From: Candidatus Magasanikiibacteriota bacterium
Lineage (GTDB): Bacteria > Patescibacteriota > Patescibacteriia > Magasanikbacterales > UBA922
DNA length: 58,489 nucleotides
Assembly (NCBI GenBank): GCA_042218065.1
Contig: JBDGRL010000087.1
Coordinates: 1-58,489, forward strand
Direction: 5' to 3'
The notes beneath the pieces were generated by a model. The model ran no database searches and was not told where the DNA came from. It worked only from the letters and a program-made list of their open reading frames with translations. Below, piece by piece: positions 85 to 18,591 of this stretch; positions within the stretch are counted from its first letter, which is position 1, and each line of letters opens with the position of its first letter. Both the position numbers and the translations under genes were made by a program.

Positions 85-1671
85 TTATTTATAAACACAA
101 CGAAATCCTAACTTTTCATCAGGAGGAGTCATAAATCTATTATTTTTTATAGTAAGAAATCTATTTCGGAATGCATTATAACTTCCACCTTTGGTGTAAA
201 TACTGTTCGGTGTTCTGTGTTTAGTAGTCATTTCTGCTGCATTACCACCCAAATCACACCCATTTTTTGGCTTATCATTAGCTCGGCTGCAAACCGGCTG
301 CAATTGGGGCGAGCCACTGCAGGCAACGTCAGCCACAAAATCCTTGCAACTCGGATTCGAGTTGCCTGCCGGCAAAGGATAGGTGGTATTTCCAGCCATT
401 GTCTCCCACTCTTTAGGAGTTGGAACCTTTCCTCCGGTTTTTTTACAATAGGTCTTAGCTGCTTTCAAAGGCAGATTCACGACAGGTTTCTTTGTCGGAT
501 TATTACAATTACAAGAGTAGGTTTTTTGAACCAATCCATTGCTTTTTGCTCTACACCATTGTTTACATGTCACTTCGGTCTTGTCGTAAGCCATTCCACC
601 TCCACGTGATGTGTAGATGGTATTTTGTTCACAGTTCTTTTTATTTTTCACATTGAATTGCTGACAAACAAGTCTTTTCTCACACCCGTCACCTTGCTGT
701 CCTTGGTTCAGATCATTGTTTGCGTCAGCCCAACCTCTAGCACAGACGTACTGACAACTGCCACCTTGACACAAGGCGCCAGAATTCTGTGGAGCCGGTA
801 CACACGAATTGCCACAGCTTCCACAGTTTTGGATAGTCGATATACTAACCTCACACCCATTTGAGTTCTTGTTATCGCAATTTCTGAATCCAGACTTGCA
901 CTTGGAAACAGTGCAAGTACCCTGGAAACAGGATTGCTTCTTTACATTCGCCAGCTGGCATTTGTTTCCACAGCTGCCACAGTTGCCCAAATCGTCCTTT
1001 GTTTTTACTTCACAGCCGTCATTTCTCTTGTCATTGTTGCAGTCGGCAAAGCCGGATTTGCAAGTGAACTGACAGTTTCCACTTTTACAACTCGTATTGG
1101 TATTTGCTGGATTCGGACACGGGTTGCCGCATCCACCGCAGTGATTTGCATTCGTATCTGTGTTCACACATTTGTTGCCGCAAGCCTTTTTGGCGGGGCT
1201 TGGGCAGGGGTCAGTATCGAATGCATCCATCGTATCGGTAGCGTCACTGCTGTCAGTGTAGAATGTGTCTTTTGTATCTTTAGTATCTCTTGCATCTTTG
1301 TTTTTGTAGGCATCCACCACATCTGTCGAATCAGCGAGAATATCACGGATGACATCTCGAGTGTCACGGATATCCATCCCGATATCTTTTTCACTAGAGT
1401 CCATTGCATCCCGGACATCCATTTCGGTATCCATGGCGTCACGGGCATCAATGTCTCGAGTGTCAACCAAAACATCTTTTTTCGTACTCGAATCAGAGCT
1501 TGTATCCGAAGTCGAGTCTCGCTTCTCTATATCACGCTTCGTATCACTAGAATCCAGGACAGCTGTACCACTATCCTTGGTTTTGAGTTTGTAATTCTGA
1601 AAAACGTTGTCACAGCCATAAAAGTTTTGAACCAAAATCGCAACTAGAACTAGAACGAGTTTTCGCTGCAT
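85..1671 (-). CDS. Secreted Cys-rich repeat protein with C-terminal FGE-sulfatase/C-type-lectin-like domain
   Basis: N-terminal signal-like segment MQRKLVLVLVAILV, then a D/T/S-rich low-complexity region. Repeated NCGxCGNxC ... CxxGxC ... CKSGFxxCNNxxxNGCE modules follow. C-terminus has LPTxxEWE, GGNAAEM, GGSY and LGFRCV motifs typical of FGE-sulfatase folds. AGGAGG sits upstream of the ATG. Confidence 0.6.
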   Translation of the reverse strand: MQRKLVLVLVAILVQNFYGCDNVFQNYKLKTKDSGTAVLDSSDTKRDIEKRDSTSDTSSDSSTKKDVLVDTRDIDARDAMDTEMDVRDAMDSSEKDIGMDIRDTRDVIRDILADSTDVVDAYKNKDARDTKDTKDTFYTDSSDATDTMDAFDTDPCPSPAKKACGNKCVNTDTNANHCGGCGNPCPNPANTNTSCKSGNCQFTCKSGFADCNNDKRNDGCEVKTKDDLGNCGSCGNKCQLANVKKQSCFQGTCTVSKCKSGFRNCDNKNSNGCEVSISTIQNCGSCGNSCVPAPQNSGALCQGGSCQYVCARGWADANNDLNQGQQGDGCEKRLVCQQFNVKNKKNCEQNTIYTSRGGGMAYDKTEVTCKQWCRAKSNGLVQKTYSCNCNNPTKKPVVNLPLKAAKTYCKKTGGKVPTPKEWETMAGNTTYPLPAGNSNPSCKDFVADVACSGSPQLQPVCSRANDKPKNGCDLGGNAAEMTTKHRTPNSIYTKGGSYNAFRNRFLTIKNNRFMTPPDEKLGFRCVYK

Positions 1672-14675: not shown

Positions 14676-15866
14676 TTATCTATTCTCAGTCTTATCTTTC
14701 ACTTGTTCCAACATAAGTTCTGCTTCCTGAGGATCTTCCGCTACAATAACACTAGCACATTTTTCAGGTAGACAAAAAGGGTTTGCAACAAAGGCACCTT
14801 TTTGATTTTCCGGATCATAATCCAAATTTTCCTGCTCAAAAATTTGATGTACTTCCTGAAATGTTTCCAAGTCAGGGTGTATATTGTGCATCAGCACACA
14901 CCTATCAGAATCTACTTGCTGGTTGATAAAATTAGGGTAAGAAGAGCCGTTGTACCTACAGTTGCATTCCAAAATCTTCCAGTCTCCTGATGAGCTTACC
15001 TTTAGGTCAAACCCGATCCTGCCATAATGTGGAAACTGCTCCACTATACTTCTGGTTGCTTGTTTGATATCATTTATTGTTTCCGTAGCGTCCCATGGGA
15101 ATACCTCTTGGGGTTCAGAAATTAAATTACCCTGATGTATACAATTGTCAATATATTGTCTGGTCCAGTACTGTAGTTCCGGCTCTCCATCTTTTTTAAT
15201 ATCCCAAGTTACACTAAACTCCTGGCCTTTATCATAAAACTCCTCTACTAAGAAAGGGTTTCCATCAGCAAAATCTTCTAGAAACTGATCAAACTCTTTA
15301 GAGTTAAAGTAAGATTTGTCTTCAACCCTCTGAGCCCCAACCCCGCTCGCCTTTTTAGGGTGCCGAACTAAAATATCATCATATTTTTGTGCCATGCTCT
15401 TGCCAGCTTTGGCTAACTCTTTATCCTCACAAACAGAATATTCTGTAAACCACTCTTCTTTACCTAAATCTCTCAGATGAGCTTTATTTTCAAGTTTCAT
15501 ATGAACTTCCGGAGGTTGTGTCTTCCACTGATGATCTTCAAACCCCCATTTTTCTTTGAACTGATTGGTATTCTCCCAAGAAACAAATGGTACTATAGTG
15601 TCACTTTCGTTGATAACTTCATCAAGCTTATTACTCTTATCTAAGGAATGAAACAAGGTTTCTCCATCTGCAGGAACTGACCATACTTTTTTGGGGCCTA
15701 AATTCATAGATTTCAGATAACTCACATAGTTATCCAGGTTCGGTTTCTCATACACTACCACACCTTCTGGGGATAACAGAGCACGAGCAGTATAATCTTC
15801 TACTCCGGATATGTAACCTTCCAAAAATTTTGTGAACAACTCTAAGCAATGTATATGTGTCTTCAT
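14676..15866 (-). CDS. ATP-grasp-like ligase, paralogue 1 (substrate unknown)
   Basis: HPKKASGVGAQ phosphate-binding-like loop and WKILECNCRYNGSS (ExN-type Mg site). It resembles the second copy at 16926-18329. Confidence 0.55.
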   Translation of the reverse strand: MKTHIHCLELFTKFLEGYISGVEDYTARALLSPEGVVVYEKPNLDNYVSYLKSMNLGPKKVWSVPADGETLFHSLDKSNKLDEVINESDTIVPFVSWENTNQFKEKWGFEDHQWKTQPPEVHMKLENKAHLRDLGKEEWFTEYSVCEDKELAKAGKSMAQKYDDILVRHPKKASGVGAQRVEDKSYFNSKEFDQFLEDFADGNPFLVEEFYDKGQEFSVTWDIKKDGEPELQYWTRQYIDNCIHQGNLISEPQEVFPWDATETINDIKQATRSIVEQFPHYGRIGFDLKVSSSGDWKILECNCRYNGSSYPNFINQQVDSDRCVLMHNIHPDLETFQEVHQIFEQENLDYDPENQKGAFVANPFCLPEKCASVIVAEDPQEAELMLEQVKDKTENR

Positions 15867-15905
15867 AACAAATTTACTTTTTAATTTAAATTTATGAATA
15901 AAAAT

Positions 15906-15931
15906 TTCAAAAACCCGCCGTTTCCGGCGGG
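15906..15931 (-). terminator. Intrinsic terminator between small ORF P1 and ATP-grasp 1
   Basis: The minus strand reads CCCGCCG-GAAA-CGGCGGG followed by TTTTTGAAATTTT. It is nearly identical to the terminator at 18401-18424. Confidence 0.8.
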
Positions 15932-15957
15932 CTCTTCTAGCTAATGCCTCTAGTTAA

Positions 15958-16047
15958 TCAAACAATAGAAAAGCCACGCCTCGGAGAACCGAGCACTAAA
16001 AACAGTACAAATACAAATAGATTTTGTTTGTAGTTTCCTTGTGTCAT
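15958..16047 (-). CDS. 29-codon small ORF P1 (MTQGNYKQNLFVFVLFLVLGSPRRGFSIV); coding status uncertain
   Basis: ATG lies 15 nt downstream of a consensus promoter -10. It has the same length and a related C-half as P2, and is followed by conserved helices and a terminator. Confidence 0.5.
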   Translation of the reverse strand: MTQGNYKQNLFVFVLFLVLGSPRRGFSIV

Positions 16048-16062
16048 AATTTTACAAATTAA

Positions 16063-16090
16063 ATTATACAATAAATATCTCTCTTGTCAA
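16063..16090 (-). promoter_or_regulatory. Consensus promoter driving P1 (and, by read-through, ATP-grasp 1)
   Basis: Minus strand reads TTGACA (16090-16085, overlapping the amidotransferase stop), 16 nt, TATAAT (16068-16063). Confidence 0.7.
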
Positions 16091-16803
16091 GATTCCTCAA
16101 CTACATCAACAAATCTATGCAGAACCTCAGTAGAATAAGAAGTATCACCAAAATCAGATAAGGCTTCATCTATATTATCAGCATAGGAAGGATAAAGTTC
16201 TAATCTGTATTTTAATCTTGCTCTAGTTAATTCTGGATGAAACAAAGTCCCCCAAACCTGCTTATCTTCTATTTTAAAAGCTTGAAAATCAACTCTATTA
16301 GAACCAGCCAACCTCACTACATTATTAGGTAAATCAATAATAGTATCTTGGTGAGCTAAAGTGACGTCAAAACCAGAATCTAAATTAGAAAATATCTTAC
16401 ACTTTTCACAATGATCAGTAAGACAAATCTCAAAAGCCCCTACTTCATGATAATGTTCATCATCCGTCAGCTCACCACCCTGATGCAGAGCAATTATTTG
16501 AGACCCCAAACAAACACCCAAAGTTGGAATGTCTGCACCTAAAATATAATCTAGATAAGAAAAAACCTCATCTTTCCATGTACCTTCACCATGACCTTTT
16601 GTAAGATAAAACTCCCCACTGCCTGCTAAGATGACTCCGTCTATTTCAGCTAGTAAAGAAATGTCTAAATCTTCTTCAGTTGCATTTATAAAACTGAGTT
16701 TAATATTTCTCTCTAATAGCTCATCCTTAAAACAATCTTGCTCGTGGTTTAAAGACTGATCTGTACGAAACTGTACCACGAGAACCTTTTTTTCTTCTGA
16801 CAT
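16087..16803 (-). CDS. Class-I glutamine amidotransferase-like protein (GATase1 / peptidase C26-like)
   Basis: Nucleophile elbow GVCLGSQIIA and a distal LFHPE His-Glu motif. The start was set to the ATG (MSEEKKVLVV) rather than the upstream GTG of the ORF track. Confidence 0.75.
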   Translation of the reverse strand: MSEEKKVLVVQFRTDQSLNHEQDCFKDELLERNIKLSFINATEEDLDISLLAEIDGVILAGSGEFYLTKGHGEGTWKDEVFSYLDYILGADIPTLGVCLGSQIIALHQGGELTDDEHYHEVGAFEICLTDHCEKCKIFSNLDSGFDVTLAHQDTIIDLPNNVVRLAGSNRVDFQAFKIEDKQVWGTLFHPELTRARLKYRLELYPSYADNIDEALSDFGDTSYSTEVLHRFVDVVEES

Positions 16804-16925
16804 AAAATGTTGATAATAATACCCCACTTTACTATAGACAAAAGCTTGCCTACAGAAGAGTAGGTGGCCGTTCCCAAAATGAGAACGGCCTTTTCCTTTT
16901 TTAAAGAGCTTAAAATCTAGTAGTT

Positions 16926-18329
16926 TTATTCTTTTCTTTGCAGTGCATTCCTTGCTTTTTCGAACTCATGCTTTGCTTCTGCAAAATCCTCGCCAAACGT
17001 ACACACTCCGCATTTATCTAGCCCCATATCCAACAATGGTGTATGGAACATGACTGTCTGAGTCGGGTTGGGTAGCCGTTCTTTGGCACTATGGTAAGAC
17101 TCGGCTTCCACTTGTAGCACATTACAACCTATTACAACTTTCGGTGCTCCCAAGCTTTCTTCCAGTTGCTTTTGGAGACCGTAGACATACCATGAGTGGC
17201 TTCCACGCGGATTGCACTCCAAAAGCAAAGCCTTTCCATCTTCAGTATACGCAAAATCAAAACAAACTTTACCACGATACCCTTTTTGGTACAGTATACT
17301 CGCAGCCTCCCCCCCGCACTCTCTCAATTTTAATCGAGCCTGAGTGCCCAACGGACCTAAAGGCACCTCTTGAGAACCAACAGCATTTCCCATGTGACCT
17401 ATATCATTTTTTATCAACTGATTTAAGGTAACCAGATCTCCAATCGGAGAATCTTTTCCAATGTTTTGCAGGCTTATGTATTGAAACTGTGGTCCATGAT
17501 CAGTGATATCGTAGATGATAGAGCACGGATGATGTTCGTAAACTTGCTCAACTATCGCTCCAACTTCTGGGTCCCAATTCTCTTCCAAGAAGCTTTGTGG
17601 TTTGTAAACACGAGAACCATTACCCCCATTTATTCCCGATCCTACTTCATCTTTAGAGGGGTAATACTTCTGACCTTCTCCAGAAGCTTTATCCGGACGC
17701 TTTACCACAACCGGTCCACATTTAGATAACCCATCAAAAACTCCTAGCAACTCTTCTCTACTTTCTACCACATAATTTTCAGGACACACCATGCAATCTT
17801 TTGCTTGAAGAGCCTCTCTCAGTCGAGCTTTATTTGCCCATTCTTCGTATTGTTCTTGAGAAGGATTCGTAACGTGTCGATCCCAATCCAATCCCAATTT
17901 TTTTACAAAATCAACTGCCTCAGGCTCACTAGAAAACAACTCCAGTTTGTAACCATCTTGAACTATCAGCTCGTAAATTTTTCTACCAGCATCAGATTTA
18001 AGCACATCATCATAAAAACTGTCTGTCTTTTGAGGGACCTCAATTATTTCTTCCGGTCCTAGCCCTTTTTCTTCTTTCAGATCCTTAAAATAGCTATCGA
18101 AGTCGAACCGAGGGTGAGTATAACTCACCATTTTCTCTACATCCACCAAGGCGACCCTGTTCCAATATGAATCTATCCCGGGAACATGCTGAAGGTGCTC
18201 CCAGTCTTCACCAACGTTGTGTAGAGCAATCGTGCTCATCTCCTCCTCCGTGAGTAACGGAAATGAACTCTCATCAACGGCAAGACCTACTCTTGCCGAT
18301 ACAACAGCTTTTAGCTGCTCAACCGGCAA
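16926..18329 (-). CDS. ATP-grasp-like ligase, paralogue 2 (substrate unknown)
   Basis: RPDKASGEGQ loop and ALLLECNPRGSHS. The ORF-track start is TTG, so the true start is uncertain (next ATG at residue 31). Confidence 0.55.
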   Translation of the reverse strand: MPVEQLKAVVSARVGLAVDESSFPLLTEEEMSTIALHNVGEDWEHLQHVPGIDSYWNRVALVDVEKMVSYTHPRFDFDSYFKDLKEEKGLGPEEIIEVPQKTDSFYDDVLKSDAGRKIYELIVQDGYKLELFSSEPEAVDFVKKLGLDWDRHVTNPSQEQYEEWANKARLREALQAKDCMVCPENYVVESREELLGVFDGLSKCGPVVVKRPDKASGEGQKYYPSKDEVGSGINGGNGSRVYKPQSFLEENWDPEVGAIVEQVYEHHPCSIIYDITDHGPQFQYISLQNIGKDSPIGDLVTLNQLIKNDIGHMGNAVGSQEVPLGPLGTQARLKLRECGGEAASILYQKGYRGKVCFDFAYTEDGKALLLECNPRGSHSWYVYGLQKQLEESLGAPKVVIGCNVLQVEAESYHSAKERLPNPTQTVMFHTPLLDMGLDKCGVCTFGEDFAEAKHEFEKARNALQRKE

Positions 18330-18400
18330 GAGTAGTTTGTGGTAATGCGACTTAAACTTACTAAATTAAGTCCTTTTTGTAAAGTGCTGATCAGAAAATT

Positions 18401-18424
18401 TAAAAAACCCGCTTTCTCAGCGGG
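18401..18424 (-). terminator. Intrinsic terminator between small ORF P2 and ATP-grasp 2
   Basis: The minus strand reads CCCGC-TGAGAAA-GCGGG followed by TTTTTTAAATTTT. Confidence 0.8.
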
Positions 18425-18451
18425 CTCTTCACGATATACTTATAAGATCTT

Positions 18452-18541
18452 CTATCTCAAATCATGAAGAGCTCCGCCTCGATAACCGAGGATCACCAGC
18501 AGAATTTCAATAATTTTAATAAATAATGAAAAGCTCTTCAT
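18452..18541 (-). CDS. 29-codon small ORF P2 (MKSFSLFIKIIEILLVILGYRGGALHDLR); coding status uncertain
   Basis: Paralogous to P1 in length, position and downstream RNA helices. A promoter-like TTGACA lies upstream. Confidence 0.5.
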   Translation of the reverse strand: MKSFSLFIKIIEILLVILGYRGGALHDLR

Positions 18542-18561
18542 AATTTTTCTTAACTATTCTT

Positions 18562-18591
18562 AATATATTAAAACATACATATATCTGTCAA
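18562..18591 (-). promoter_or_regulatory. Promoter-like element upstream of P2
   Basis: Minus strand reads TTGACA (18591-18586) followed at 17-18 nt by an AT-rich -10 (ATATAT/TATATT). Confidence 0.5.

Follow-up and report, generated by a model that had tools for sequence, protein, structure and literature searches.

The window analysed here is a 58,489-nt stretch of DNA from a Candidatus Magasanikiibacteriota bacterium (contig JBDGRL010000087.1), which is contig C86 of genome G000 (1.17 Mb, 98 contigs). Its minus strand carries two short units, P1 and P2, each of which consists of a promoter, a small open reading frame (ORF) and an intrinsic terminator, and each of which stands before a ligase-like gene. 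Read along the minus strand, which is the strand meant below unless the plus strand is named, the order is a UvrD-like helicase gene, a nucleoside diphosphate kinase gene, a Host_attach-like gene, unit P2, the gene of a 467-amino-acid (aa) protein, an amidotransferase/peptidase C26-like gene, unit P1, the gene of the 396-aa protein P0001, and a rhodanese-domain gene. An earlier interpretation made from the letters alone, which we call the sequence-only reading, proposed that the small ORFs are leader peptides that sense the supply of hydrophobic aminoacyl-tRNAs and gate two amino-acid ligases. The evidence presented below favors that proposal.

The P1 promoter (16063 to 16090; -35 hexamer at 16090 to 16085, -10 hexamer at 16068 to 16063) overlaps the stop codon of the amidotransferase gene. 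It has 12 of 12 sigma-70-type consensus positions and a 16-nt spacer, and is the best of the sites listed between 13000 and 20000. The P2 promoter (18562 to 18591) has 11 of 12 consensus positions. Both are among the three best of the 25 promoter-like sites listed in that interval, where one further site also reaches 11 of 12. The P1 leader ORF (15958 to 16047) and the P2 leader ORF (18452 to 18541) each have 29 codons and a stop. The only other genome of the genus, G001 (locus L016), has a 28-codon P1-like ORF and a 35-codon counterpart of the P2 ORF in the matching places before its two ligase genes. In all four units, the ORF starts 15 to 23 nt past the -10 hexamer. The candidate regulatory codons are codons 10 to 19 of P1 (15991 to 16020), which are exclusively Leu, Phe and Val, and codons 8 to 18 of P2 (18488 to 18520), which are Ile, Leu and Val with one Lys and one Glu. 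The hydrophobic runs named in the sequence-only reading are therefore real. The P1 ORF has no Shine-Dalgarno sequence. However, a GGAG motif lies within 20 nt upstream of just 37 of the 671 long ORFs of G000 (5.5%), and the sequence ahead of start codons in this genome is rich in A and poor in G. Because Shine-Dalgarno sites are scarce throughout the genome, their absence at the small ORFs is no argument against translation.

Each ORF and the RNA that follows it contain three elements. We call the ORF-side strand of the second helix B, its terminator-side strand C (the 5' arm of the terminator plus 7 to 8 upstream bases), and the 3' arm of the terminator with its U tract D. In P1, hairpin 1 (segments 1:2; 15993 to 15980) has 5 bp and a 4-nt loop, and its 3' arm shares bases with B. 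Helix 2 (15975 to 15966 with 15939 to 15930) has 10 bp, and the terminator arm lies at 15931 to 15925, exactly as had been proposed. In P2, the same three elements can be read directly on the minus strand from 18541 to 18401, and hairpin 1 (18477 to 18491) has 5 bp and a 5-nt loop. The sequence-only reading had seen a weakness in the overlap of only 1 to 2 nt between helix 2 and the terminator. This concern does not hold, because helix 2 continues past one bulged base for 4 to 6 further pairs over the 5' arm of the terminator. In P1, B (15966 to 15980) lies in the last ORF codons and is paired at 15980 to 15977 and 15975 to 15966, with 15976 bulged; C (15926 to 15939) comprises 8 nt and the first six bases of the terminator 5' arm. 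In P2, B (18464 to 18478) is paired at 18478 to 18474 and 18472 to 18464, with 18473 bulged, and forms 14 bp with C (18419 to 18432), which takes in the terminator 5' arm at 18424 to 18419. This antiterminator, B:C, has 10 to 14 bp and is found in all four copies, that is, in P1 and P2 of G000 and in the P1-like and P2-like units of G001.

The P1 terminator (15909 to 15936) has 12 pairs, 7 of them G-C, with a G+C core at 15931 to 15925 and 15920 to 15914 and a U tract at 15913 to 15909. The P2 terminator (18401 to 18431) has 13 pairs. These are the two longest stems of the nine terminator-like sites listed between 13000 and 20000. The distance from terminator to ligase start is 45 nt for P1 and about 70 to 160 nt for P2. 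The stop codon of the small ORF lies 0 to 8 nt past B, and the overlap between hairpin 1 and segment 2 is just 2 nt. Measured by hand in the four units and in a relative, L025, described below, the distance from the end of the codon run to the paired bases of B is 9 to 12 nt; the value for P1 is about 10 nt, and the Asn run of L025 is spaced about alike. With this spacing, a ribosome stalled in the run could cover segment 1 without blocking B.

Several controls bear on these pairings. The folding z-scores are -3.43 for P1 and -5.35 for P2, and none of 200 shuffles was equally stable. The B:C helix has a predicted energy of -23.4 kcal/mol in P1 and likewise in P2 of G000, and of -25.1 kcal/mol in the P2-like unit of G001. 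None of 1000 dinucleotide shuffles of the upstream RNA reached these values, shuffle energies being about -10 to -12 kcal/mol. For the P1-like unit of G001 (-20.5 kcal/mol), 4 of 1000 shuffles did. The 45-nt terminator tails, which include the U tract, range from -17.2 to -24.4 kcal/mol, and the hairpins alone, without the U tract, from -10.5 to -18.6 kcal/mol. The P1 tail, which forms the terminator hairpin and a small 3-bp hairpin, has -22.7 kcal/mol (hairpin alone, -15.2), and the P2 tail has -17.2 kcal/mol. The B:C energies are thus comparable to those of the terminators. When the RNA made before D is folded by itself, B:C is present in all four units. We also scored the best upstream complement at 303 terminator-like sites across the genome, which gave a mean of -8.7 kcal/mol (standard deviation, 3.4); P1 (-22.2) and P2 (-21.9) ranked second and third. 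On the strength of the shuffle, fold and genome-wide controls, we regard B:C and C:D as a real pair of alternative structures.

The two units are paralogous. Their 3' halves share long identical stretches, and their 5' halves do not align. The elements of P2 had been described as differing in sequence from those of P1, which proved incorrect, since the stems are largely identical in the alignment. The only differences in helix 2 are one extra U:A pair and one U.G in place of C-G, so the P1-P2 comparison by itself gives weak covariation. The conserved block consists of the 3' arm of hairpin 1 and strand B, and its 7-nt core begins with the second base of a codon in P1 (15983) but with the first base of a codon in P2 (18481). 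Because the block is read in different frames and encodes different residues in P1 and P2, what is conserved is the RNA and not the peptide. Between the P2 units of G000 and G001, seven codons over the stems have no synonymous change, hairpin 1 has an identical stem and a loop in which all five bases have changed, and no alignment is possible in the central part of the ORF.

The organism is known from metagenomes alone, and the window DNA and an approximately 98% identical strain are both present in salt-lake metagenome runs. For the strain in run X2, 40 of 101 differences were listed, including 14 of 15 and 7 of 9 for the two contigs that cover the units. Among those listed, the P1 ORF has three nonsynonymous and two synonymous differences. 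The first ligase gene has 5 nonsynonymous and 13 synonymous differences and the amidotransferase gene has 3 and 6, so together 8 of 27 are nonsynonymous. Three listed differences fall in B:C, and all keep or improve pairing (one U.G to C-G and two U-A to U.G). Contigs of the same run join 15582 to 16740, which would delete the P1 unit, the 5' end of the first ligase gene and most of the amidotransferase gene. A second joint connects 18144 with 18278. Both joints are supported by a single contig each, with short flanks, and may be assembly artifacts or real deletion variants.

We searched related genomes with two covariance models. R1 was built from the four units and took the antiterminator as its consensus structure; R2 was built from six sequences. 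With R1, 5 of 107 family genomes matched at E ≤ 0.01, including G000 and G001, and new elements were found in G181 and G213. With R2, 38 of 151 order genomes matched at E ≤ 0.01 and 9 of 151 class genomes at E ≤ 5e-4. We inspected 29 family and order loci (2 from R1 and 27 from R2) and 7 class loci. At 11 of the 29, a short ORF lies close to the promoter, its codon run stops right before B, and a terminator follows. The runs lie outside the model or at its edge and were therefore not selected by the search. When 18 rows were aligned to R2, 89.4% of cells were paired, compared with 40 to 56% when the partners were slid. In this alignment, itself fitted to a model derived from B:C, both sides had changed in 13 of 18 pairs overall and in 10 of 12 pairs of the B:C helix, and none of 500 shuffles reached any observed covariation measure. 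The G181 element illustrates this, since its distal seven B:C pairs are almost wholly swapped for other complementary bases and the bulge and the G+C-rich inner pairs are kept. The wider set thus supports the claim that base pairing in helix 2 is conserved, although the P1-P2 difference on which it had been based gives weak support.

The codon runs of the relatives name amino acids. In 5 of the 11 leaders, the run consists of five to seven Asn codons in a row, and each of these five leaders is followed 0 to 100 nt downstream by a tRNA-Asn(GTT) gene (L025, 1501 to 1654, in G181; L032, L041, L045 and L047 in G161, G162, G237 and G037, respectively). Judged from these sequences, a tRNA gene here appears to be under attenuation control exerted by the codons that its product reads. 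One leader has six Phe codons (L035 in G182; leader and terminator at about 1466 to 1581, then 2089 to 2538), with a 114-aa ORF and a type II chorismate mutase gene downstream. The regulatory codon and the gated gene therefore match in both cases. Another leader has an interrupted Phe run (three Phe, one Ser, one Phe) and is followed by an 82-aa ORF without a Pfam match and a UvrD-like helicase gene. The other four leaders are rich in Ile, Leu and Val. One of them (L030, an Ile run) precedes a GCS2-family carboxylate-amine ligase gene, as does a locus with an ambiguous leader (L038). One precedes a protein weakly similar to the ATP-grasp motif region of the second ligase (E = 0.008), one precedes a 161-aa ORF, and one has its nearest recognized gene 673 nt away. 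Among the class matches, L062 (G295) has a Met-rich leader with two Met triplets, and L058 (G282) has a 48-codon ORF with nine consecutive Val codons. Terminators follow both, and the genes downstream of these two leaders match no Pfam family and include no tRNA. In G000 itself, the two tRNA-Asn genes and the tRNA-Phe and tRNA-Ile genes have no leader ORF upstream. At L026 (about 1290 to 1500, minus strand, in G213), about six copies of a 7- to 8-base repeat stand between the terminator and a 429-aa gene, resembling an operator array.

We then modeled the effect of ribosome position. The ribosome was taken to cover 16 nt from the first P-site base, only RNA 3' of it was folded at equilibrium, and the U tract was omitted. 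The antiterminator was favored with the P site at codons 9 to 17 in P2 of G000, 1 to 18 in the P2-like unit of G001, and 1 to 13 in the P1-like unit of G001. From codon 18 to 20 (codon 16 in the P1-like unit of G001, where two later codons gave 0.01) to the stop, the antiterminator probability was 0.00 in all four units.

These features suggest the following mechanism. Each unit would be transcribed from its own strong promoter, and its ORF of 29 codons, about ten of which make up the hydrophobic run, would be translated. Segment 1 and the start of segment 2 form hairpin 1, and the B:C antiterminator and the C:D terminator are mutually exclusive. When the cognate aminoacyl-tRNAs are plentiful, the ribosome would reach the stop codon and mask B, C would pair with D, and transcription would end at 15909 (P1) or 18402 (P2). 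Under scarcity, the ribosome would stall in the run and cover segment 1, leaving B free to capture C once C is made. The terminator would then be blocked, and RNA polymerase would read into the ATP-grasp ligase gene and, from P2, into the amidotransferase gene as well. We conclude, with a probability of roughly three in four, that P1 and P2 are ribosome-mediated (leader-peptide) transcription attenuators that sense the supply of Phe, Leu and Val (P1) and of Ile, Leu and Val (P2). The antiterminator in all four copies, the conservation at the RNA level, the cognate runs in relatives and the covariation support this reading. We regard the anatomy, the alternative pairings with their conservation and covariation, and the gene-matched codon runs of the relatives as established, and from them we infer translation of the ORFs, stalling of the ribosome and regulated read-through.

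A number of observations weigh against this conclusion. Some concern the folding. Alternative folds, which the sequence-only reading had proposed to compute, do show B:C and the terminator as alternatives in all four units, but the equilibrium models without a ribosome disagree, predicting termination in two units and read-through in two. In P1 of G000, a 9-bp part of helix 2 coexists at equilibrium with a 6-bp terminator core, and in the ribosome model the antiterminator of this unit is only weakly favored at P-site codons 14 to 16 and never exceeds 0.63. When the U tract is included, the terminator wins nearly everywhere at equilibrium. However, such folds represent the termination decision poorly, since the U tract has yet to leave the RNA:DNA hybrid when that decision is made. 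Other points concern the comparative evidence. No leader ORF is present at 17 of the 29 family and order loci, which are plain terminators or the ends of long genes, and one further locus is ambiguous. The 18-row alignment contains few sequences, two of which are not leaders, and because it was fitted to the B:C-derived model, its pair counts lean towards structure. In B:C shuffle tests at the relatives' loci, 0 of 500 shuffles reached the observed value at five loci, 5 to 14 did so at four and 20 to 48 at three; since the model search had selected for the B:C complement, these results too lean towards structure and are not independent evidence. Still others concern the units and their genes. 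The runs of P1 and P2 are mixed (Phe/Leu/Val and Ile/Leu/Val) and are not repeats of one amino acid, and no RNA runs are listed among those containing the window region. Downstream of the P2 terminator and ahead of the ligase gene is a candidate second, weaker promoter (18355 to 18383; -35 at 18383 to 18378, -10 at 18360 to 18355). It was missed by the consensus scan, but its hexamers and 17-nt spacing are identical in G000 and G001 and its spacer sequence differs. Judged from this pattern, it may provide basal transcription, and the ligase may therefore not depend on read-through. Lastly, ATP-grasp ligases do not belong to amino-acid biosynthesis, which gives no evident reason for hydrophobic aminoacyl-tRNA supply to control them.

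The first gated gene (14676 to 15866) encodes P0001, which has no Pfam match. An AlphaFold2 model of P0001 (predicted local distance difference test score, 86.9; predicted template modeling score, 0.86) has the fold of an ATP-grasp ligase. Its best fold matches, with template modeling (TM) scores of 0.65 to 0.73, are the Streptomyces ATP-grasp peptide ligases 8ynd and 3wvq/3wvr, BesA (8yi6) and a staphylococcal ligase (7r8p). We take 3wvq to be the pheganomycin ligase; the entry title reads just "ATP grasp protein." A PDB sequence search with P0001 gave no match. The second gated gene (16926 to 18329; 467 aa if it starts at TTG 18329) encodes a divergent ATP-grasp ligase that belongs to no Pfam family, has E values of 5.7e-9 with P0001 and 1e-12 with the family profile, and has weak NCBIfam matches to ATP-grasp families. 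Based on the fold matches of P0001 and the distant homology of the second protein, "amino-acid or peptide ligases" appears to be a fair description of both products, and the fold agrees with the ligase assignment made in the sequence-only reading. The last gene of the P2 unit (16087 to 16827) encodes the class I glutamine amidotransferase/peptidase C26-like protein (PF00117, 2.7e-16; PF07722, 8.8e-7). At 18289 to 18333, a 10-bp stem with an internal hairpin is likely part of the 5' untranslated region of the second ligase gene. It is kept in G001 with one compensatory change from G-C to A-U and a different enclosed sequence. If this stem is real, the ligase more likely starts at ATG 18239, which follows a purine-rich stretch, than at TTG 18329.

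The P0001 family is small, with 11 proteins among 5.8 billion: P0001, the G001 protein P0011, and nine others (P0005 to P0010 and P0012 to P0014). At the order level, the family profile matched 2 of 240 genomes, G000 and G001. Two scans of metagenome contigs gave no further locus of the family, and a scan of genome contigs gave the G001 contig alone. In G001, the order small ORF, ligase, amidotransferase is present twice, and the flanking ligases are 46 to 65% identical to those of G000. The four small leader peptides of the two genomes are absent from the protein collection.

The fold of the gated proteins raises the question of whether the small ORFs encode substrates for them. In this scenario, they would be precursor peptides of the kind found among ribosomally synthesized and posttranslationally modified peptides (RiPPs) or resembling that of pheganomycin, and the terminator would set a high ratio of peptide to enzyme. 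As with the precursor-peptide ATP-grasp ligases 8ynd and 3wvq/3wvr, which match P0001 with TM scores of about 0.7, a small ORF adjoins a ligase of similar fold, and G001 has two cassettes that combine a small ORF with a ligase gene and an amidotransferase/peptidase-like gene. Many precursor-peptide genes also share the layout of strong promoter, small gene and terminator. However, a RiPP-like precursor should have a conserved core or recognition sequence, and none is seen here; the C-terminal block is in different frames in the paralogues, orthologous peptides diverge outside the RNA stems, and the constraint is on the RNA. In the near-identical strain, 3 of the 5 listed differences in the P1 ORF are nonsynonymous, and the peptides do not show a cross-link pattern of Asp/Glu plus Ser/Thr/Lys. 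The same architecture occurs before tRNA-Asn and chorismate mutase genes, where a substrate peptide would be senseless, and a precursor peptide gives no role to a 10- to 14-bp complement of the terminator arm. We consider this the least probable explanation of all.

There are two other explanations. P1 and P2 could be small genes that always terminate and that yield a hydrophobic membrane peptide, a type I toxin-like peptide or small RNAs, with pairing between the start region and the 3' part of the ORF controlling translation or stability. Like the type I toxin mRNAs hok, tisB and fst, each unit has a small hydrophobic ORF, a strong promoter and terminator of its own, and a start codon that can be hidden by 5'-3' pairing, as the start-codon region pairs with B in the full-length fold of three of the four units. 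The peptides have a hydrophobic center and a basic tail, and the conserved candidate promoter lies past the P2 terminator. However, the hydrophobic stretches of about 10 to 13 residues are too short to span a membrane, and the peptide is poorly conserved. A consensus scan found no convincing antisense promoter in a suitable place (a plus-strand candidate at 18516 to 18544 faces away from the ORF), and the units are fixed before ligase genes in both genomes. Constitutive termination would leave the conserved antiterminator and its covariation unexplained, and we regard this alternative as very unlikely. Alternatively, the switch could be real but answer another signal, either a small molecule or antibiotic that stalls the ribosome through the nascent peptide, or a protein or ligand that binds the leader RNA whether or not it is translated. 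The evidence for the alternative structures is good, yet it says nothing about what places the ribosome. In Bacillus subtilis, ribosome-mediated attenuators of nonbiosynthetic genes are reported to answer to antibiotics (PMC4191407, PMC6851288), and the genes gated here are likewise not biosynthetic. Nevertheless, the pure Asn, Phe, Met and Val runs of the relatives, with a cognate gene downstream where one can be identified, are the signature of a sensor of tRNA charging. The ORF and the position of its stop codon relative to B are kept in every unit, and no conserved, aptamer-like sequence is common to the 5' halves of the two units. A different signal is therefore unlikely, and we retain attenuation by tRNA charging as the preferred reading.

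Leader-peptide attenuators control the enterobacterial ilvGMEDA, ilvBN, leu and pheA operons, and Rfam has Trp, Leu, His and Thr leader families. P1 and P2 resemble these leaders in having a promoter, a short ORF with a codon run, four segments that pair as 1:2/3:4 or as 2:3, and a terminator before the first gene, with a stop codon whose position lets a ribosome that completes the ORF mask segment 2. The mixed Ile/Leu/Val run of P2 is like that of ilvGMEDA, and the six-Phe leader before chorismate mutase (L035) parallels pheL-pheA, in a genome of the Candidate Phyla Radiation (CPR) that keeps chorismate mutase. In contrast to the enterobacterial leaders, P1 and P2 have no sequence relationship to them, occur in a Patescibacteria/CPR host almost without Shine-Dalgarno sequences, gate ATP-grasp ligases and an amidotransferase-like gene (a tRNA gene in relatives), and have only the 2-nt overlap between hairpin 1 and segment 2. 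No Rfam leader family reached its gathering score; the best was Trp_leader (RF00513) on P2, with 21.5 bits against a threshold of 41 (E = 0.35). No Rfam family of any other kind reached its threshold either, and the hits below threshold were at chance level. P1 and P2 are best read as members of a new RNA family. Control of genes outside the classical amino-acid operons by a short upstream ORF is also reported in bmrCD of B. subtilis (PMC4191407) and in mycobacteria, where short leaderless polycysteine ORFs set downstream expression (bioRxiv 10.1101/834739). Those systems are reported to share the very short 5' leaders without a Shine-Dalgarno sequence. However, they respond to antibiotics or cysteine, whereas the leaders described here have hydrophobic runs (Asn, Phe, Met or Val in relatives) and an explicit terminator and antiterminator.

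DNA and motif searches of G000 found no third copy of the unit. In the genome-wide antiterminator screen, rank 5 went to a site near position 38678 of contig C52 (minus strand; about 3150 to 3330 of L022) with a near-consensus promoter and a 22-codon ORF. The stop codon of this ORF overlaps a strand complementary to the 5' arm of the following terminator, about 580 nt without an ORF of at least 80 aa come next, and the site has no Rfam match. A third attenuator or the beginning of an unrecognized RNA gene may lie here. Rank 1 went to a structured leader near position 976 of contig C20 (1955 bp; minus strand), where a Shine-Dalgarno-like site and a 4-codon ORF come before a long, nested, G+C-rich hairpin.

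Beyond the two units, we put forward a broader proposal, which at present we would neither bet on nor against. P1 and P2 would belong to a previously undescribed family of attenuator RNAs across the class Paceibacteria, in which each gated gene responds to the amino acid specified by the codon run of its leader. The Asn branch would feed transcription of tRNA-Asn back from decoding, and the hydrophobic branch would gate ATP-grasp and GCS2 carboxylate-amine ligases. In open-access papers and bioRxiv preprints, we found no report of leader-peptide attenuation in Patescibacteria/CPR and none of a tRNA gene behind a leader-peptide attenuator. The mechanism needs tight coupling of transcription and translation together with a readout of tRNA charging, and here it would operate in genomes of about 1 Mb with almost no use of Shine-Dalgarno sequences. 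The codon run gives a testable hint of the amino acid sensed by orphan genes, in this case two ATP-grasp ligases. If the proposal is true, these organisms, which are unable to make amino acids, use the orphan ligases to acquire or buffer Phe, Leu, Ile and Val, and the attenuators provide a built-in functional label for hypothetical CPR genes.

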